Assembly (NCBI RefSeq): GCF_003334815.1 | Contig: NZ_QOWO01000025.1 | Source of the DNA: Escherichia coli | GTDB lineage: Bacteria > Pseudomonadota > Gammaproteobacteria > Enterobacterales > Enterobacteriaceae | Reading direction: 5' to 3' (one strand) | Length of the DNA stretch: 64,000 nt | Part shown: positions 2,153 to 11,360 of the stretch, piece by piece | How positions within the stretch are numbered: the first letter of the stretch is position 1 | Layout: each line of letters starts with the position of its first letter | The notes under the pieces: generated by a model | The model's database searches: none | Told to the model about the DNA's origin: nothing | What the model saw: only the letters and a program-made list of their open reading frames with translations | Position numbers and translations under genes: made by a program

Positions 2153-4829
2153 CGAACCCTTACGTCCCGACCCCGATCGTCTGCTGGAACAAACTGCCGC
2201 GCCGCATCGGGGGAAGCTGAAAGTTTTCTTCGGTGCCTGTGCAGGCGTCGGGAAGACCTGGGCGATGCTGGCAGAAGCCCAGCGACTGCGGGCGCAAGGG
2301 CTGGATATTGTGGTTGGCGTGGTAGAAACCCACGGGCGAAAAGATACCGCCGCCATGCTGGAAGGGCTGGCTGTTCTGCCGTTAAAACGCCAGGCGTACC
2401 GTGGGCGGCATATCAGCGAGTTTGATCTCGATGCCGCCCTCGCCCGCCGCCCGGCGCTGATCTTAATGGACGAACTGGCGCACAGTAATGCGCCAGGTTC
2501 CCGTCATCCCAAACGCTGGCAGGATATCGAAGAACTGCTGGAAGCTGGCATTGATGTTTTCACTACCGTCAACGTTCAGCATCTGGAAAGTCTGAATGAT
2601 GTGGTCAGCGGCGTCACCGGAATTCAGGTACGGGAAACCGTGCCCGATCCTTTTTTCGATGCCGCCGACGACGTGGTGCTGGTGGACTTGCCCCCGGACG
2701 ATCTGCGCCAGCGGCTGAAAGAAGGCAAAGTCTATATTGCCGGGCAGGCGGAGCGCGCCATTGAACATTTTTTCCGCAAAGGTAATCTGATCGCCCTGCG
2801 CGAACTGGCACTGCGCCGTACTGCCGATCGCGTTGATGAGCAAATGCGCGCCTGGCGGGGGCATCCTGGCGAAGAGAAAGTGTGGCACACGCGCGACGCG
2901 ATCCTTTTATGCATCGGCCATAACACCGGCAGCGAAAAACTGGTCCGCGCAGCGGCGCGGCTGGCGTCACGGCTGGGTAGCGTCTGGCACGCGGTGTATG
3001 TTGAAACCCCTGCCCTGCACCGCTTACCGGAAAAAAAACGTCGGGCAATTCTCAGCGCCTTACGTCTGGCGCAGGAACTGGGCGCGGAGACGGCAACACT
3101 TTCTGATCCAGCGGAAGAGAAAGCGGTAGTGCGTTATGCCCGTGAACATAATCTCGGCAAGATTATTCTCGGTCGCCCGGCCTCGCGCCGCTGGTGGCGT
3201 CGGGAAACGTTTGCTGACCGACTGGCGCGCATCGCCCCCGATCTCGATCAGGTGCTGGTCGCGCTTGATGAACCACCCGCCCGCACGATTAACAACGCGC
3301 CGGATAACCGCTCTTTTAAAGACAAGTGGCGTGTACAAATTCAGGGATGCGTGGTTGCCGCCGCGTTATGCGCCGTTATCACCTTAATTGCCATGCAGTG
3401 GCTGATGGCGTTTGATGCCGCCAACCTGGTGATGCTGTATCTGCTTGGCGTGGTGGTGGTGGCGCTATTTTATGGACGCTGGCCTTCAGTGGTTGCCACC
3501 GTCATTAATGTAGTGAGTTTCGATCTCTTTTTTATCGCCCCACGCGGCACGCTCGCCGTCTCTGATGTGCAATATCTGCTGACCTTCGCGGTGATGTTAA
3601 CCGTCGGGCTGGTGATCGGGAACCTTACTGCTGGCGTGCGTTATCAGGCGCGGGTAGCCCGTTACCGCGAGCAACGCACACGGCACTTATATGAAATGTC
3701 GAAAGCTCTGGCGGTGGGCCGCAGTCCGCAGGATATCGCTGCCACCAGCGAACAATTTATTGCCTCCACGTTTCATGCCCGCAGTCAGGTGTTGTTGCCC
3801 GATGACAACGGTAAATTGCAGCCGTTAACACATCCGCAAGGAATGACGCCGTGGGACGATGCCATCGCGCAGTGGAGTTTTGATAAAGGCCTGCCTGCGG
3901 GCGCGGGCACCGACACGTTACCCGGTGTACCGTACCAGATTTTGCCGCTAAAAAGCGGCGAGAAAACCTACGGGCTGGTGGTGGTGGAGCCGGGGAATCT
4001 GCGCCAGTTGATGATCCCGGAACAGCAGCGCCTGCTGGAGACGTTTACGCTGTTAGTCGCCAATGCCCTTGAGCGGCTGACGCTAACCGCCAGCGAAGAA
4101 CAGGCGCGGATGGCAAGCGAACGTGAACAGATCCGCAACGCCCTGCTGGCGGCGCTTTCGCATGATTTACGCACGCCGCTTACGGTGCTGTTTGGTCAGG
4201 CAGAAATCTTAACGCTCGATCTGGCAAGCGAAGGATCACCCCACGCCCGCCAGGCCAGCGAGATCCGTCAGCATGTGCTGAACACTACCCGACTGGTGAA
4301 TAATCTACTGGATATGGCGCGAATTCAGTCCGGCGGCTTTAATTTGAAGAAAGAGTGGTTAACGCTGGAAGAAGTAGTCGGCAGCGCGCTGCAAATGCTG
4401 GAACCGGGTTTATCGTCGCCCATCAATCTTTCTCTGCCAGAACCGCTGACCTTAATCCACGTTGACGGGCCACTCTTTGAACGGGTGCTGATTAATCTGC
4501 TGGAGAACGCGGTGAAATATGCGGGTGCGCAGGCCGAAATTGGTATCGATGCCCACGTTGAGGGCGAAAATCTACAACTGGATGTCTGGGATAACGGCCC
4601 CGGTCTTCCGCCAGGCCAGGAGCAGACGATATTTGATAAGTTTGCTCGCGGGAATAAAGAGTCGGCAGTACCGGGGGTAGGGCTTGGACTGGCAATTTGT
4701 CGGGCGATAGTGGATGTACACGGGGGCACTATTACCGCGTTCAACCGACCGGAAGGTGGTGCCTGTTTTCGTGTTACACTTCCCCAGCAAACTGCCCCTG
4801 AACTTGAAGAATTTCATGAGGATATGTGA
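2145..4829 (+). CDS. kdpD: Sensor histidine kinase KdpD (894 aa)
   Basis: ORF 2103..4829 trimmed to [16 protein letters not shown] start; N-terminal KdpD domain with Walker A (GACAGVGKT), USP-like region, 4 TM helices, HisKA (SHDLRTPL) and HATPase (GLGLAICR) motifs. Confidence 0.93.
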
Positions 4830-5503
4830 CAAACGTTCTGATTGTTGAAGATGAACAGGCTATTCGTCGCTTTCTGCGCACGGCGCTGGAGGGCGACGGG
4901 ATGCGCGTCTTTGAGGCCGAAACGCTGCAACGCGGCTTGCTGGAAGCGGCAACCCGTAAGCCAGATTTGATTATTCTCGATCTCGGCCTGCCCGATGGTG
5001 ATGGGATTGAGTTTATCCGCGACCTGCGCCAGTGGAGCGCGGTGCCGGTGATTGTGCTTTCCGCACGCAGCGAAGAGAGCGACAAAATCGCCGCGCTGGA
5101 TGCCGGAGCGGATGATTATCTGAGTAAGCCGTTTGGCATTGGCGAATTGCAGGCCCGTCTGCGCGTCGCATTACGCCGCCACTCTGCCACCACCGCGCCC
5201 GATCCGCTGGTAAAATTTTCCGATGTTACCGTCGATTTAGCCGCCCGCGTGATTCACCGGGGTGAGGAAGAGGTGCATCTCACACCAATTGAGTTCCGCC
5301 TGCTGGCGGTGCTGCTCAACAATGCCGGAAAAGTACTCACCCAGCGCCAGCTCCTTAACCAGGTGTGGGGGCCAAACGCGGTCGAACACAGTCACTATTT
5401 GCGTATTTATATGGGACATCTGCGACAAAAACTGGAACAGGATCCCGCCCGCCCACGCCATTTCATTACTGAAACCGGTATTGGCTATCGGTTTATGCTT
5501 TGA
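4826..5503 (+). CDS. kdpE: Response regulator KdpE (OmpR family, 225 aa)
   Basis: [20 protein letters not shown]; receiver domain with conserved Asp (IILDLGLPDGDG) plus winged-helix C-terminus; ATGTGA overlap with kdpD stop. Confidence 0.95.
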   Translation: MTNVLIVEDEQAIRRFLRTALEGDGMRVFEAETLQRGLLEAATRKPDLIILDLGLPDGDGIEFIRDLRQWSAVPVIVLSARSEESDKIAALDAGADDYLSKPFGIGELQARLRVALRRHSATTAPDPLVKFSDVTVDLAARVIHRGEEEVHLTPIEFRLLAVLLNNAGKVLTQRQLLNQVWGPNAVEHSHYLRIYMGHLRQKLEQDPARPRHFITETGIGYRFML

Positions 5504-6098: not shown

Positions 6099-8297
6099 AT
6101 GTCAAAATTAAAAATTGCGGTTAGTGATTCTTGCCCGTACTGTTTTACCACGCAGCGAGAATGTATCTACATTAATGAAAGTCGTAATATCGATGTGGCG
6201 GCAATAGTTTTATCGCTCAACGATGTTACATGCGGAAAACTCGATGAAATCGATGCCACGGGTTATGGCATCCCGGTATTTATTGCTACTGAAAATCAAG
6301 AACGTGTACCCGCAGAGTATTTGCCCCGTATTTCGGGTGTCTTTGAGAATTGCGAATCGCGACGAGAATTTTATGGTCGCCAGTTAGAAACCGCTGCCAG
6401 CCATTATGAAACTCAACTGCGCCCACCTTTCTTCCGCGCACTGGTCGATTATGTCAATCAAGGTAACAGCGCGTTTGATTGCCCTGGTCATCAGGGCGGC
6501 GAATTTTTCCGTCGCCATCCGGCGGGGAATCAGTTTGTGGAATACTTTGGTGAGGCGCTGTTCCGTGCCGACTTGTGCAACGCCGACGTAGCGATGGGCG
6601 ATCTGCTGATTCACGAAGGCGCGCCATGCATTGCACAGCAACATGCGGCAAAAGTGTTTAATGCCGATAAAACCTACTTCGTTTTAAATGGCACTTCATC
6701 TTCTAACAAAGTGGTTTTAAACGCCCTGCTAACACCGGGTGATCTGGTGCTGTTTGATCGCAATAACCACAAATCTAACCACCACGGAGCGTTGCTACAG
6801 GCTGGTGCAACACCGGTTTATCTGGAAACGGCACGTAACCCGTATGGCTTTATCGGTGGCATTGATGCGCACTGTTTTGAAGAAAGTTACCTGCGTGAGC
6901 TGATCGCGGAAGTCGCACCGCAGCGGGCAAAAGAGGCTCGTCCTTTCCGCCTCGCTGTGATTCAGTTAGGCACCTACGACGGTACGATTTATAACGCCCG
7001 CCAAGTGGTGGATAAAATTGGTCATCTGTGTGACTACATCCTGTTTGACTCAGCATGGGTCGGCTATGAACAGTTTATTCCGATGATGGCGGACTGTTCG
7101 CCGCTGTTGCTGGATCTTAATGAGAACGATCCGGGTATTCTGGTTACGCAATCTGTGCATAAACAACAGGCTGGTTTTTCTCAGACTTCACAAATTCATA
7201 AAAAAGACAGCCACATCAAAGGGCAACAGCGTTATGTACCGCACAAACGCATGAACAACGCCTTTATGATGCACGCCTCCACCAGCCCGTTCTATCCGCT
7301 GTTTGCCGCACTGGATATCAACGCCAAAATGCATGAAGGTGTCAGCGGTCGTAATATGTGGATGGATTGTGTGGTAAATGGCATTAATGCCCGCAAACTG
7401 ATCCTCGATAACTGTCAGCATATTCGTCCGTTCGTACCTGAACTGGTGGATGGTAAACCCTGGCAGTCGTATGAAACAGCGCAAATTGCGGTTGATCTGC
7501 GCTTCTTCCAGTTTGTACCAGGGGAACACTGGCATTCTTTTGAAGGCTATGCAGAGAATCAATACTTTGTCGATCCATGCAAACTGTTGCTGACAACCCC
7601 AGGTATTGATGCACGTAACGGCGAATATGAAGCGTTCGGTGTACCCGCGACGATTCTTGCTAACTTCCTGCGCGAAAATGGCGTAGTGCCGGAAAAATGC
7701 GATCTTAACTCCATCCTCTTCCTGCTGACTCCGGCAGAAGATATGGCCAAACTTCAGCAACTTGTTGCCCTGCTGGTACGCTTCGAAAAACTGCTTGAGT
7801 CCGACGCGCCATTAGCAGAAGTGCTACCTTCCATCTACAAACAGCATGAAGAGCGCTACGCCGGTTATACCCTGCGTCAGTTGTGTCAGGAAATGCATGA
7901 TTTGTATGCCCGCCACAACGTGAAACAACTGCAAAAAGAGATGTTCCGTAAGGAGCACTTCCCACGCGTCAGCATGAATCCGCAAGAAGCCAACTACGCC
8001 TATTTACGCGGTGAAGTGGAACTGGTTCGTCTGCCGGATGCAGAAGGCCGTATCGCTGCCGAAGGTGCGCTTCCTTATCCTCCGGGTGTGCTGTGTGTTG
8101 TTCCGGGTGAAATCTGGGGTGGTGCTGTTCTGCGTTACTTCAGCGCTCTGGAAGAAGGGATCAACCTGCTGCCAGGTTTTGCACCGGAGCTGCAGGGTGT
8201 CTATATCGAAGAACATGATGGTCGTAAGCAAGTTTGGTGCTATGTCATCAAGCCTCGTGATGCGCAAAGCACCCTGTTGAAAGGGGAAAAATTATGA
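6099..8297 (+). CDS. speF: Inducible ornithine decarboxylase (732 aa)
   Basis: ORF MSKLKIAVSDSCPYCF...; fold-type I PLP decarboxylase (SVHKQQAGFSQTS lysine motif); followed by potE antiporter. Confidence 0.94.
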   Translation: MSKLKIAVSDSCPYCFTTQRECIYINESRNIDVAAIVLSLNDVTCGKLDEIDATGYGIPVFIATENQERVPAEYLPRISGVFENCESRREFYGRQLETAASHYETQLRPPFFRALVDYVNQGNSAFDCPGHQGGEFFRRHPAGNQFVEYFGEALFRADLCNADVAMGDLLIHEGAPCIAQQHAAKVFNADKTYFVLNGTSSSNKVVLNALLTPGDLVLFDRNNHKSNHHGALLQAGATPVYLETARNPYGFIGGIDAHCFEESYLRELIAEVAPQRAKEARPFRLAVIQLGTYDGTIYNARQVVDKIGHLCDYILFDSAWVGYEQFIPMMADCSPLLLDLNENDPGILVTQSVHKQQAGFSQTSQIHKKDSHIKGQQRYVPHKRMNNAFMMHASTSPFYPLFAALDINAKMHEGVSGRNMWMDCVVNGINARKLILDNCQHIRPFVPELVDGKPWQSYETAQIAVDLRFFQFVPGEHWHSFEGYAENQYFVDPCKLLLTTPGIDARNGEYEAFGVPATILANFLRENGVVPEKCDLNSILFLLTPAEDMAKLQQLVALLVRFEKLLESDAPLAEVLPSIYKQHEERYAGYTLRQLCQEMHDLYARHNVKQLQKEMFRKEHFPRVSMNPQEANYAYLRGEVELVRLPDAEGRIAAEGALPYPPGVLCVVPGEIWGGAVLRYFSALEEGINLLPGFAPELQGVYIEEHDGRKQVWCYVIKPRDAQSTLLKGEKL

Positions 8298-9613: not shown

Positions 9614-9630
9614 TAAAACAAAGTAAAAAA

Positions 9631-9655
9631 GGGCGATTGAATGATCGCCCTTTCT
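9631..9655 (+). terminator. Rho-independent terminator after potE
   Basis: GC hairpin gggcgat..atcgccc followed by T-run. Confidence 0.6.
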
Positions 9656-9704
9656 GTTTGTTGGCAAATAGTTCGTTATTTATGCCGCATCCGGCAGATG
9701 TAGG

Positions 9705-9838
9705 GTCTAAACGCGATCGAACACAGCAACTATTTGCGTAATTATATGGGGCATCTGCGACAAAAACTGGAACAGGATCCGGCCCGGCCTCGCCATTTTA
9801 TTACTGAAACCGGTATTGGGTATCGGTTTATGCTTTGA
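9705..9838 (+). pseudogene. Duplicated 3'-terminal fragment of kdpE (about 130 bp, roughly 90% identical to 5374..5503)
   Basis: Direct nucleotide comparison: aaacgcgatcgaacacagcaactatttgcg... vs kdpE aaacgcggtcgaacacagtcactatttgcg...; same stop codon; translates to ...NAIEHSNYLRNYMGHLRQKLEQDPARPRHFITETGIGYRFML* with no proper start. Confidence 0.8.
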
Positions 9839-9961
9839 AAAAAGTGGCAATGTATGGATAAAGTCATTTTTTATTCAAATATAAGGAACTTAATATTTAA
9901 AAAATGTTCCATACAATTCCTCATCATAAATGACACCGTAGCACACAAGGAGCAAGTAGCG

Positions 9962-10612
9962 ATGCGTGAAATGAATCAGTTAGTAAATACTGAAGATTCA
10001 GCCTGGCCAATAATCCAGAACTGGTTAAAAGACGCCACAAACCATACCGAACTCTTACCGGTTAATAAAGATTTAGCCGAAACCGCACTTTATCAATTAC
10101 AGGTGACAACAAAATCACCGATGGGTGCGCTTGTCTATGGCTCCGGAGGTCTGCTGATTGATAATGGTTGGTTACGCATAGCAGGATCTGGTCACCCCCG
10201 GTTGCCACGAGATCCAGTAAGTTGGACACAACGCCCTGAATTCGCAGGCGTGCGGGCTTTACCCATCGCTGACGATGTCGCAGGGGGAATTTTTGCTCTT
10301 AATGGTGGCGATCTTGGGGAAGATACTGGCTGCGTTTATTATTTTGCGCCAGATACGCTGAATTGGGAAAGTCTGGAAGTTGGATATTCTGAGTTTCTTC
10401 AGTGGGCATTATCCGGTGATTTAGATACCTTCTATGAAAATGTACGATGGCAGCAATGGCGAGAAGACGTAATAAAATTATCGGCAACGGAAGCCTTCAC
10501 GTTCTACCCTTTCTTATGGGTACAAAGTGAAGAAGCAAGAACAAGAAAAGTTATTTCGCTTACTGAACTCTGGGAAATGCAGTATCAAATGAAAGAAACA
10601 TTCACGCAATAA
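9962..10612 (+). CDS. ybfG: Conserved hypothetical protein (YbfG-like)
   Basis: ORF 9854..10612; most likely start at ATG 9962 (MREMNQLVNTE) preceded by AAGGAG RBS; position between potE and ybfP matches K-12 ybfG; symbol from synteny only. Confidence 0.55.
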   Translation: MREMNQLVNTEDSAWPIIQNWLKDATNHTELLPVNKDLAETALYQLQVTTKSPMGALVYGSGGLLIDNGWLRIAGSGHPRLPRDPVSWTQRPEFAGVRALPIADDVAGGIFALNGGDLGEDTGCVYYFAPDTLNWESLEVGYSEFLQWALSGDLDTFYENVRWQQWREDVIKLSATEAFTFYPFLWVQSEEARTRKVISLTELWEMQYQMKETFTQ

Positions 10613-10652
10613 GACATGTTCAGGTCCGGGTTTCATTCCCGGACTCACTATT

Positions 10653-11147
10653 TTAATGTGTATTTATCGCTTTCAATTCTTGCTGGCAATTTTCTGACTG
10701 GCAGCGTCGTAACTCAATAATCCCGACATGCATCATCGAGCCAAAAAATCCGCTTTCGCTGACATAATCCTCATTGACTATCGGTCGAGTGCCGGGCTTG
10801 CCCTGGCAAACCCGCATAAAAAATGAGGTGTAGCATTGCCAACCGGGATTTAAACCGACCTTTTCTTGTGCTGACATATTATGAAGATAAGTAAGTTCTT
10901 TTTCGTTCCCGCCTGACAACTGCCAGCGGCGGGTATTATCAGGTAAGTTATCACCACGGCAATTTGTCTTACACCGGAAAGGTGCAATATTTACCGCAAT
11001 GCTACCCGTTAATCCTCTGGTTTTATCTTTAGGGGTCAGTAACCAGTCGCCAGCTAATGATGATTGTTCAGGTTGGGCGCATGCAGTCAGCAGTAATGTG
11101 GCGGTAATTAGTGACACTATGACGACCAGACTCCTGTTGGTCTTCAT
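10653..11147 (-). CDS. ybfP: Putative lipoprotein YbfP (164 aa)
   Basis: ORF with signal peptide and lipobox (LLLTAC); cysteine-rich. Confidence 0.75.
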   Translation of the reverse strand: MKTNRSLVVIVSLITATLLLTACAQPEQSSLAGDWLLTPKDKTRGLTGSIAVNIAPFRCKTNCRGDNLPDNTRRWQLSGGNEKELTYLHNMSAQEKVGLNPGWQCYTSFFMRVCQGKPGTRPIVNEDYVSESGFFGSMMHVGIIELRRCQSENCQQELKAINTH

Positions 11148-11197
11148 TGGGATTTCCTTGAGCTACTCAGTTTGTTGACAAAGTGTTCGTTGTTTTT

Positions 11198-11296
11198 GCC
11201 GGATGCGGCGTGAACGCCTTATCCGGCCTACAAAATCGCTTAAATTCAATATATTGCACCATCCTCGTAGGCCTGATAAGCGTAGCGCATCAGGCA
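11198..11296. repeat. REP/BIME element (two inverted REP units)
   Basis: gccggatgcggcgtgaacgccttatccggcctac and inverted partner gtaggcctgataagcgtagcgcatcaggc; canonical E. coli REP consensus. Confidence 0.85.
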
Positions 11297-11360
11297 ATTC
11301 TGTGTTTGTCATACGTAAAAAAGGGCGATCTTGCGACCGCCCTTTTTTTATTAAATGTGT

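Follow-up and report, generated by a model that had tools for sequence, protein, structure and literature searches.

What does the product of ybfG do, and why does Escherichia coli K-12 carry only a disrupted copy of the gene? The question is raised by a 64,000-nucleotide stretch of E. coli DNA (contig NZ_QOWO01000025.1 of assembly GCF_003334815.1; this whole stretch is referred to here as the window), in which ybfG is an intact open reading frame (ORF). We propose, with moderate confidence and on the strength of sequence comparisons and a structure model, that YbfG acts against NucA/NucB-type DNases, as an orphan immunity protein or an inhibitor. Whether the same holds for its whole family, DUF2625, we regard as an even call; the family would then be an unrecognized and unusually conserved group of NucA/NucB inhibitors standing beside Nin/ComJ, with cytoplasmic orphans directed against injected toxins and the exported copies of Bacteroidota acting outside the cytoplasm. 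It is this functional proposal for YbfG and DUF2625 that is new, since the intact allele itself is routine and is annotated in >1000 genomes.

An intact member of the DUF2625 family

Read from the sequence, ybfG runs from an ATG at 9962 to a TAA at 10610-10612, with 216 sense codons and zero internal stops. The initial annotation had described an uninterrupted 216-codon ORF with an AAGGAG motif at 9947..9952, placed between a kdpE remnant and ybfP and devoid of an obvious signal peptide, and this description is accurate on every point: the remnant lies at 9695-9839, ybfP lies at 10653-11147, and no signal peptide was found in YbfG. The gene and its ribosome-binding site are as follows.

9962..10612, plus strand: ybfG coding sequence, 216 amino acids (aa), an intact DUF2625 protein with a predicted SUKH-like fold (sequence, Pfam/NCBIfam, AlphaFold2 model)
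9947..9952, plus strand: Shine-Dalgarno sequence AAGGAG, 9 nt upstream of the ybfG ATG (read from the sequence)

A longer in-frame version that starts from the ATG at 9854 and encodes 252 aa is also present in the list of ORFs, and this longer form is the one annotated in some databases. We prefer the start at 9962 because its Met opens the alignment of 41 homologs and because the ribosome-binding site favors it; the extra 36 residues of the 252-aa form bear no resemblance to a signal peptide. The ORF is no chance product, as it matches Pfam DUF2625 (PF10946) with an E value of 1.5e-87 over residues 4-202 (model positions 1-206/207) and reaches 512.7 bits with NCBIfam NF008494 (PRK11408.1-1), whose cut-off is 278.

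The initial annotation had left room for a gene without homologs outside close relatives, and this can be set aside. DUF2625 comprises 1467 clusters at 50% identity (E <= 0.001), and its members come from five phyla, namely, Proteobacteria, Bacteroidota, Firmicutes, Actinomycetota and Myxococcota. YbfG is 44-57% identical to members from other genera and phyla, and the alignment of 41 sequences holds 28 invariant columns, among them the polar residues T50, S52, D67, R72, R83, D104 and D105. Judging by their N termini, the members include exported as well as cytoplasmic forms: about half of those sampled, nearly all from Bacteroidota, have 21- to 23-aa signal peptides or lipoprotein signals directly preceding the conserved domain (examples are P0227, P0234, P0254, P0262 and P0292, some with a lipoprotein-type Cys; loci L008-L090).

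A predicted fold shared with DNase-immunity proteins

YbfG is a cytoplasmic single-domain protein whose AlphaFold2 model (pLDDT 93.4, pTM 0.90) has the fold of the SUKH superfamily. Among solved structures, Tdi1/Tdi2, which confer immunity to type VI DNases, come closest to it, and after them come the SUKH proteins 2icg, YobK (2prv), 3d5p, FBXO3, Knr4, Syd and RhsPI (8bd1), of which YobK and RhsPI are immunity proteins. A separate Foldseek comparison likewise placed Tdi2 and then Tdi1 on top (TM of ~0.6). Going by the model, then, the nearest structural relatives of YbfG are proteins that neutralize DNase toxins. At the level of sequence, the Pfam matches in this direction are weak, with an E value of 0.14 for SMI1_KNR4 in YbfG and of 0.11 for SUKH_6 in the DUF2625 region of the family member P0273. 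The Foldseek search of AFDB50 returned DUF2625 members only and no annotated outgroup. DUF2625 may be a member of the SUKH clan of Pfam.

Tdi1 and Tdi2 of Bacteroidales and Atu4351/Tdi1 of Agrobacterium belong to DUF1851 and confer immunity to type VI DNase effectors of the Ntox15 class. Like YbfG as we see it, they are cytoplasmic proteins of ~200 aa that neutralize a DNase, and Tdi orphans far outnumber the toxin-linked copies. In the published Tde/Tdi case, orphan tdi genes exceed the toxins about ten-fold and are found on mobile elements, and the orphan Tdi proteins bind toxin with nanomolar affinity despite an identity of 61-65% (PMC10470768). The resemblance between the model of YbfG and the Tdi proteins is at the fold level only: the sequences share 12-13% identity, YbfG lacks a Pfam DUF1851 match, and neither a sequence search of the PDB nor a search with the 41-sequence profile gave a meaningful match. 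The partners differ as well, with Ntox15 for Tdi, whose mechanism is 'fold-splitting', and NucA/NucB as the toxin partner seen for DUF2625. The SUKH-1 (SMI1/KNR4) proteins, such as Bacillus subtilis YobK and RhsPI, are ~130-160 aa long, whereas DUF2625 proteins have ~215 aa with extra elements and show much higher conservation across phyla than is typical of SUKH-1 immunity proteins.

NucA/NucB domains upstream of DUF2625 genes

The second line of evidence is the order of genes elsewhere in the family. At four independent loci, all from Firmicutes or an oral metagenome, a NucA/NucB (PF14040) DNase domain is followed ~20 bp downstream by a DUF2625 gene, and no toxin of another type was found upstream of DUF2625 at these four.

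Clostridium homopropionicum (L034): 2437-aa RHS-repeat protein with a NucA/NucB tip after an NPVNLYDPSG motif; gap to the DUF2625 gene, 21 bp
Anoxybacillus (L080): 457-aa protein with a helical N terminus and a C-terminal NucA/NucB domain; gap to the DUF2625 gene, ~20 bp
Human oral metagenome contigs (L092-L095): 139-aa orphan NucA/NucB tip; gap to the DUF2625 gene, 18 bp
Clostridium butyricum megaplasmid (L100): two frameshifted NucA/NucB fragments, E value of ~1e-16 each; gap to the DUF2625 gene, ~25 bp

The NPVNLYDPSG motif of the Clostridium homopropionicum protein is presumably a variant of the Rhs core-end motif, and the Anoxybacillus protein is possibly LXG-like (the match of its N-terminal region to WXG100 is nonsignificant, with an E value of 0.85). 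Around the oral metagenome pair there is an array of Imm26, Tox-ART-HYD1, GH-E then Imm33, PT-TG and RHS, and the C. butyricum array includes a GH-E nuclease and then an ankyrin-repeat protein. At the C. butyricum locus, an immunity gene seems to have outlived its toxin. The frameshifted remnant of the NucA/NucB tip, at 4726-4978 of that locus and just upstream of the DUF2625 gene, is unannotated.

The toxin-linked copies do not form a separate subfamily, since their identity to YbfG (45% for Clostridium and 43% for Anoxybacillus) is in the same range as that of other homologs. Domain architecture within the family points the same way as gene order: P0273 is a DUF2625 domain fused to an SMI1_KNR4 (SUKH-1) domain (E = 2.4e-7), and P0257 is a tandem DUF2625 protein, and such fusion and tandem architectures have been described as polyimmunity proteins (Zhang et al. 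2012). These hallmarks belong to the family and not to the E. coli locus, where there is neither a poly-immunity array nor a fusion and where the place of the upstream toxin gene, which is on the same strand at the four loci above, is taken by the kdpE remnant. YbfG can only be an orphan member of the family.

A proposed role for YbfG as an orphan immunity protein

The chain of events that we have in mind starts with a competitor whose polymorphic toxin system would deliver a NucA/NucB-type DNase domain into the cell. YbfG would bind this domain in a tight 1:1 complex and would occlude or distort the nuclease so that the chromosome is protected. In E. coli the gene sits in a small horizontally acquired islet flanked by potE and pgm and has no cognate toxin, and it would therefore serve for defense only.

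We infer that YbfG binds and inhibits a nuclease from the fold of the model and from gene order in the family. Several observations weigh against this proposal. No toxin gene adjoins ybfG and no NucA/NucB domain occurs within the 64-kb window, and therefore ybfG would have to be an orphan defense gene. Among ~75 Gram-negative DUF2625 loci, none has an adjacent toxin; a Pfam census of 120 non-redundant immediate neighbors of DUF2625 genes showed no enriched family, and synteny of the neighbors is confined to genera (seven annotated contexts and the ~75 genome loci). The toxin-linked cases are all from Firmicutes or from an unknown taxon, and none of them supplies a toxin that could reach the E. 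coli cytoplasm and be blocked by YbfG. The two proteobacterial NucA/NucB tips that were examined are followed by ComJ (PF11033) and not by DUF2625 (83-933 of L096 and 5001-5709 of L097). The family is also unusually conserved for immunity proteins, with its 28 invariant columns and 45-55% identity across phyla, a degree of conservation that parallels the 55-65% identity among the NucA/NucB tips. Finally, signal peptides in about half of the sampled members are unusual for immunity to a DNase that acts in the cytoplasm and imply action outside it. In view of these points, the three alternative readings given below carry real weight.

NucA/NucB enzymes are natively extracytoplasmic nucleases, and the forms with signal peptides could fit such targets. 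ComJ/Nin (PF11033) is the inhibitor of the NucA DNA-entry nuclease in B. subtilis. It occupies the same position as DUF2625, directly downstream of NucA/NucB domains (L096 and L097), which makes it a functional analogue directed at this family of nucleases, although YbfG, unlike ComJ, has no Pfam PF11033 match. ComJ follows the sampled proteobacterial tips and DUF2625 follows those of Firmicutes and of the oral metagenome; thus, there are apparently two unrelated immunity or inhibitor families for these nucleases. The expected pairing of proteobacterial NucA/NucB tips with DUF2625 was rejected on finding ComJ as the partner of the two examined, and a conserved operon partner of DUF2625 in Gram-negative bacteria was rejected given the genus-level synteny at the ~75 loci and the lack of an enriched family among the 120 neighbors. 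The copies of DUF2625 on plasmids of Brevibacillus and Streptomyces had no NucA/NucB domain nearby. On a Yersinia-like contig (L005, 4344-12675), a DUF2625 gene sits within a mobile or defense-type island together with a CbtA/CbeA toxin-antitoxin pair, an anti-restriction gene and genes carrying NucS_C-like, IS110, pP_pnuc and Mrr_cat domains.

The lack of toxin neighbors for most DUF2625 genes, with heterogeneous genes in their place, is what one would expect if YbfG were a protein-binding module of the SUKH fold that serves in housekeeping or regulation and has nothing to do with toxins, like Syd or Smi1/Knr4, and if the toxin adjacency in a few Firmicutes were a specialized offshoot. The high conservation across phyla and the invariant T50, S52, D67, R72, R83, D104 and D105 would also suit a conserved partner or ligand. 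We nevertheless consider this unlikely. A housekeeping gene would hardly be accessory, missing from about two-thirds of E. coli, and disrupted in K-12 laboratory derivatives, and a specialized offshoot does not agree with toxin-linked copies that are no further from YbfG than other homologs are. The SUKH-1 fusion, the tandem duplication and the toxin/immunity arrays are hallmarks of immunity genes, and the solved structures that come closest belong to genuine DNase-immunity proteins.

A somewhat less likely explanation still is that YbfG is an orphan immunity protein against another class of toxin, either Ntox15/Tde-type DNases or several classes. The best structural matches, Tdi1 and Tdi2, neutralize Ntox15 nucleases, immunity proteins of the SUKH type have partners in many families of nucleases and deaminases (Zhang et al. 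2012), and the proteobacterial NucA/NucB tips have ComJ as their partner rather than DUF2625. What speaks for NucA/NucB instead is that this domain is the one found upstream in four out of four toxin-linked loci, that YbfG is as distant from Tdi in sequence and Pfam assignment as described above, and that the tight conservation of DUF2625 mirrors that of the NucA/NucB tips.

The initial annotation could assign no function to YbfG from its sequence. Our literature searches for DUF2625 and PF10946 found no paper. A testable function can now be put forward for this E. coli y-gene and for a DUF family of about 1,500 clusters at 50% identity. If inhibition of NucA/NucB nucleases is indeed what the family does, DUF2625 would be a second candidate inhibitor family for these enzymes, which are of interest for biofilm dispersal, and it would add another example of orphan immunity genes that exceed toxins in number.

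The K-12 allele and the distribution of ybfG in E. coli

The initial annotation had suggested that ybfG might be a split pseudogene in the K-12 reference and intact here, and this agrees with the annotation of MG1655 (NC_000913.3), where pseudogene ybfG (b0691, formerly split into ybfG/ybfH) is listed at 715947-716597, and with our alignment to it, in which the MG1655 copy is disrupted. The two copies are orthologous: the K-12 gene has the same place between ybfI/potE and ybfP/pgm, and the potE-ybfI and ybfP-pgm flanks are colinear with MG1655. A frameshift, which had been suggested as the possible lesion, was rejected, as both copies are 651 bp long and the lesion is an in-frame nonsense codon. 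The copies are identical at 649 of 651 nt and differ by just two substitutions.

10169..10171, plus strand: codon 70, TGG (Trp) in the window and TAG (amber, W70*) in MG1655; base 10170 is G in the window and A in MG1655
10286..10288, plus strand: codon 109, GGA (Gly) in the window and GTA (Val) in K-12; base 10287 is G in the window and T in K-12

The amber codon at position 70 turns ybfG into a pseudogene in K-12. W70 is >=90% conserved across the 41-sequence DUF2625 alignment, while G109 is invariant and sits in an ADDxxGGFFAxNGG motif, so that G109V is a second damaging change. Since both W70* and G109V depart from residues conserved in the family, the K-12 gene is the derived, damaged form, and the window, which has the family consensus at both positions, carries the intact and ancestral allele. 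Both the intact allele and the K-12 lesion are already in public annotation and are ordinary. Between 4559 and 14559 of the window there are only 4 single-base differences from MG1655 in 10,001 bp (at 6138, 7314, 10170 and 10287), two of them inside ybfG; K-12 and the strain that supplied the window are thus very closely related. Derivatives of K-12 with an amber suppressor (supE44/glnV44) would be expected, from the sequence, to read through the ybfG TAG in part.

We surveyed 5426 complete E. coli genomes for the gene and found it in 1853, with at least 80% of its length in 1778. The 61-mer centered on codon 70 is that of the window allele in 1277 genomes and that of the K-12 amber allele in 364, and the sampled genomes with the amber allele are mostly named K-12 laboratory derivatives (such as MG1655, MC4100 and ER1709). 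The Val109 61-mer of K-12 is present in 355 genomes. The amber 61-mer is absent from BL21(DE3), a Rosetta2-DE3 genome has exactly the sequence of the window allele at and around codon 70, and the 2.2-kb ybfG region was matched in the BL21 (TaKaRa) genome at a reported 100.0% identity. Derivatives of K-12 are thus natural ybfG nulls, and codon 70 is intact in phylogroup A strains such as BL21; the null state is relevant to any toxin assay in which K-12 serves as prey or as expression host. If YbfG does act in immunity, laboratory strains of K-12 are without a natural interbacterial defense gene that is kept by a third of E. coli.

Between two intact ybfG alleles of E. coli there are 20 differing sites, of which 10 are synonymous and 10 non-synonymous (dN/dS of ~0.28), and none of the differences falls on a family-invariant residue; the estimate is weak, yet it is consistent with purifying selection. 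Some copies in E. coli are broken, by an insertion sequence (IS) in one case (IS1 within the ybfG match H1) and as partial copies in others (H39 and H40), and IS elements, one of them an IS200, lie inside the 2.2-kb region of other genomes. The ybfG papers that we inspected treat the gene as a pseudogene or as a neutral knock-out control, and one study picked a K-12 strain knocked out for ybfG as its control, on the presumption that losing this pseudogene is neutral. That E. coli ybfG is a functionless leftover of an acquired islet, intact merely for lack of time to decay, is very unlikely in our view, for although its loss from K-12, the IS insertions and truncations elsewhere, the choice of the K-12 knock-out as a neutral control and the missing cognate toxin would all suit such a leftover, the dN/dS value, the retention of every invariant residue, the number of genomes that share the codon-70 61-mer or at least 80% of the gene, and the good ribosome-binding site speak for maintenance.

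The accessory islet between potE and pgm

The gene lies in a short accessory islet whose features, in the coordinates of the window, are as follows.

9623..11345, no strand: accessory islet of ~1.69 kb (ybfI'-ybfG-ybfP plus REP elements), with two ~31-bp terminator hairpins at its ends
9623-9653 and 11315-11345: the two copies of the ~31-bp terminator hairpin (AAAAGGGCGAT...ATCGCCCTTT) that flank the islet
9695..9839, plus strand: kdpE 3' remnant, which is pseudogene ybfI in MG1655, directly upstream of ybfG and 90.3% identical to MG1655 kdpE over 145 nt
10623..10645, no strand: hairpin rich in GC that lies between the convergent ybfG and ybfP and resembles a terminator on the plus strand (consensus scan only)
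10653..11147, minus strand: ybfP lipoprotein gene, convergent neighbor of ybfG in the same islet

The potE-pgm segment carrying the islet is present in 1844 of the 5426 genomes, or about one-third, and in most islet-free genomes potE and pgm are parted by a single terminator hairpin (e.g., L011). This arrangement suggests that the islet is gained or lost by recombination between the ~31-bp hairpin repeats. A third arrangement, kdpE-REP-ybfP-pgm, is found in strain M114 (L010), which has ybfP without ybfG and is also without speF-potE; the two islet genes are consequently not obligatorily linked. The kdpE remnant of the window is 88.7% identical to the kdpE 3' end of this strain (3001-3142 of L010), and the arrangement hints at an insertion of a speFL-speF-potE block into the kdpE 3' end or at a rearrangement there. 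The GC content of ybfG is 44.4%, against 50.9% for the window, and from these sequence features ybfG is an accessory single-gene cassette that was probably acquired horizontally.

Neither YbfG nor YbfP matched any PADLOC or PHROGs model, and therefore a known anti-phage or phage role is unsupported. REP/BIME-type repeats (GCCGGATGCGGCGTGAACGCCTTATCCGGCCTAC and related) are located at ~11190-11300 of the window, between ybfP and pgm, and it is because of these repeats that a search with this stretch gives ~39 matching places per genome.
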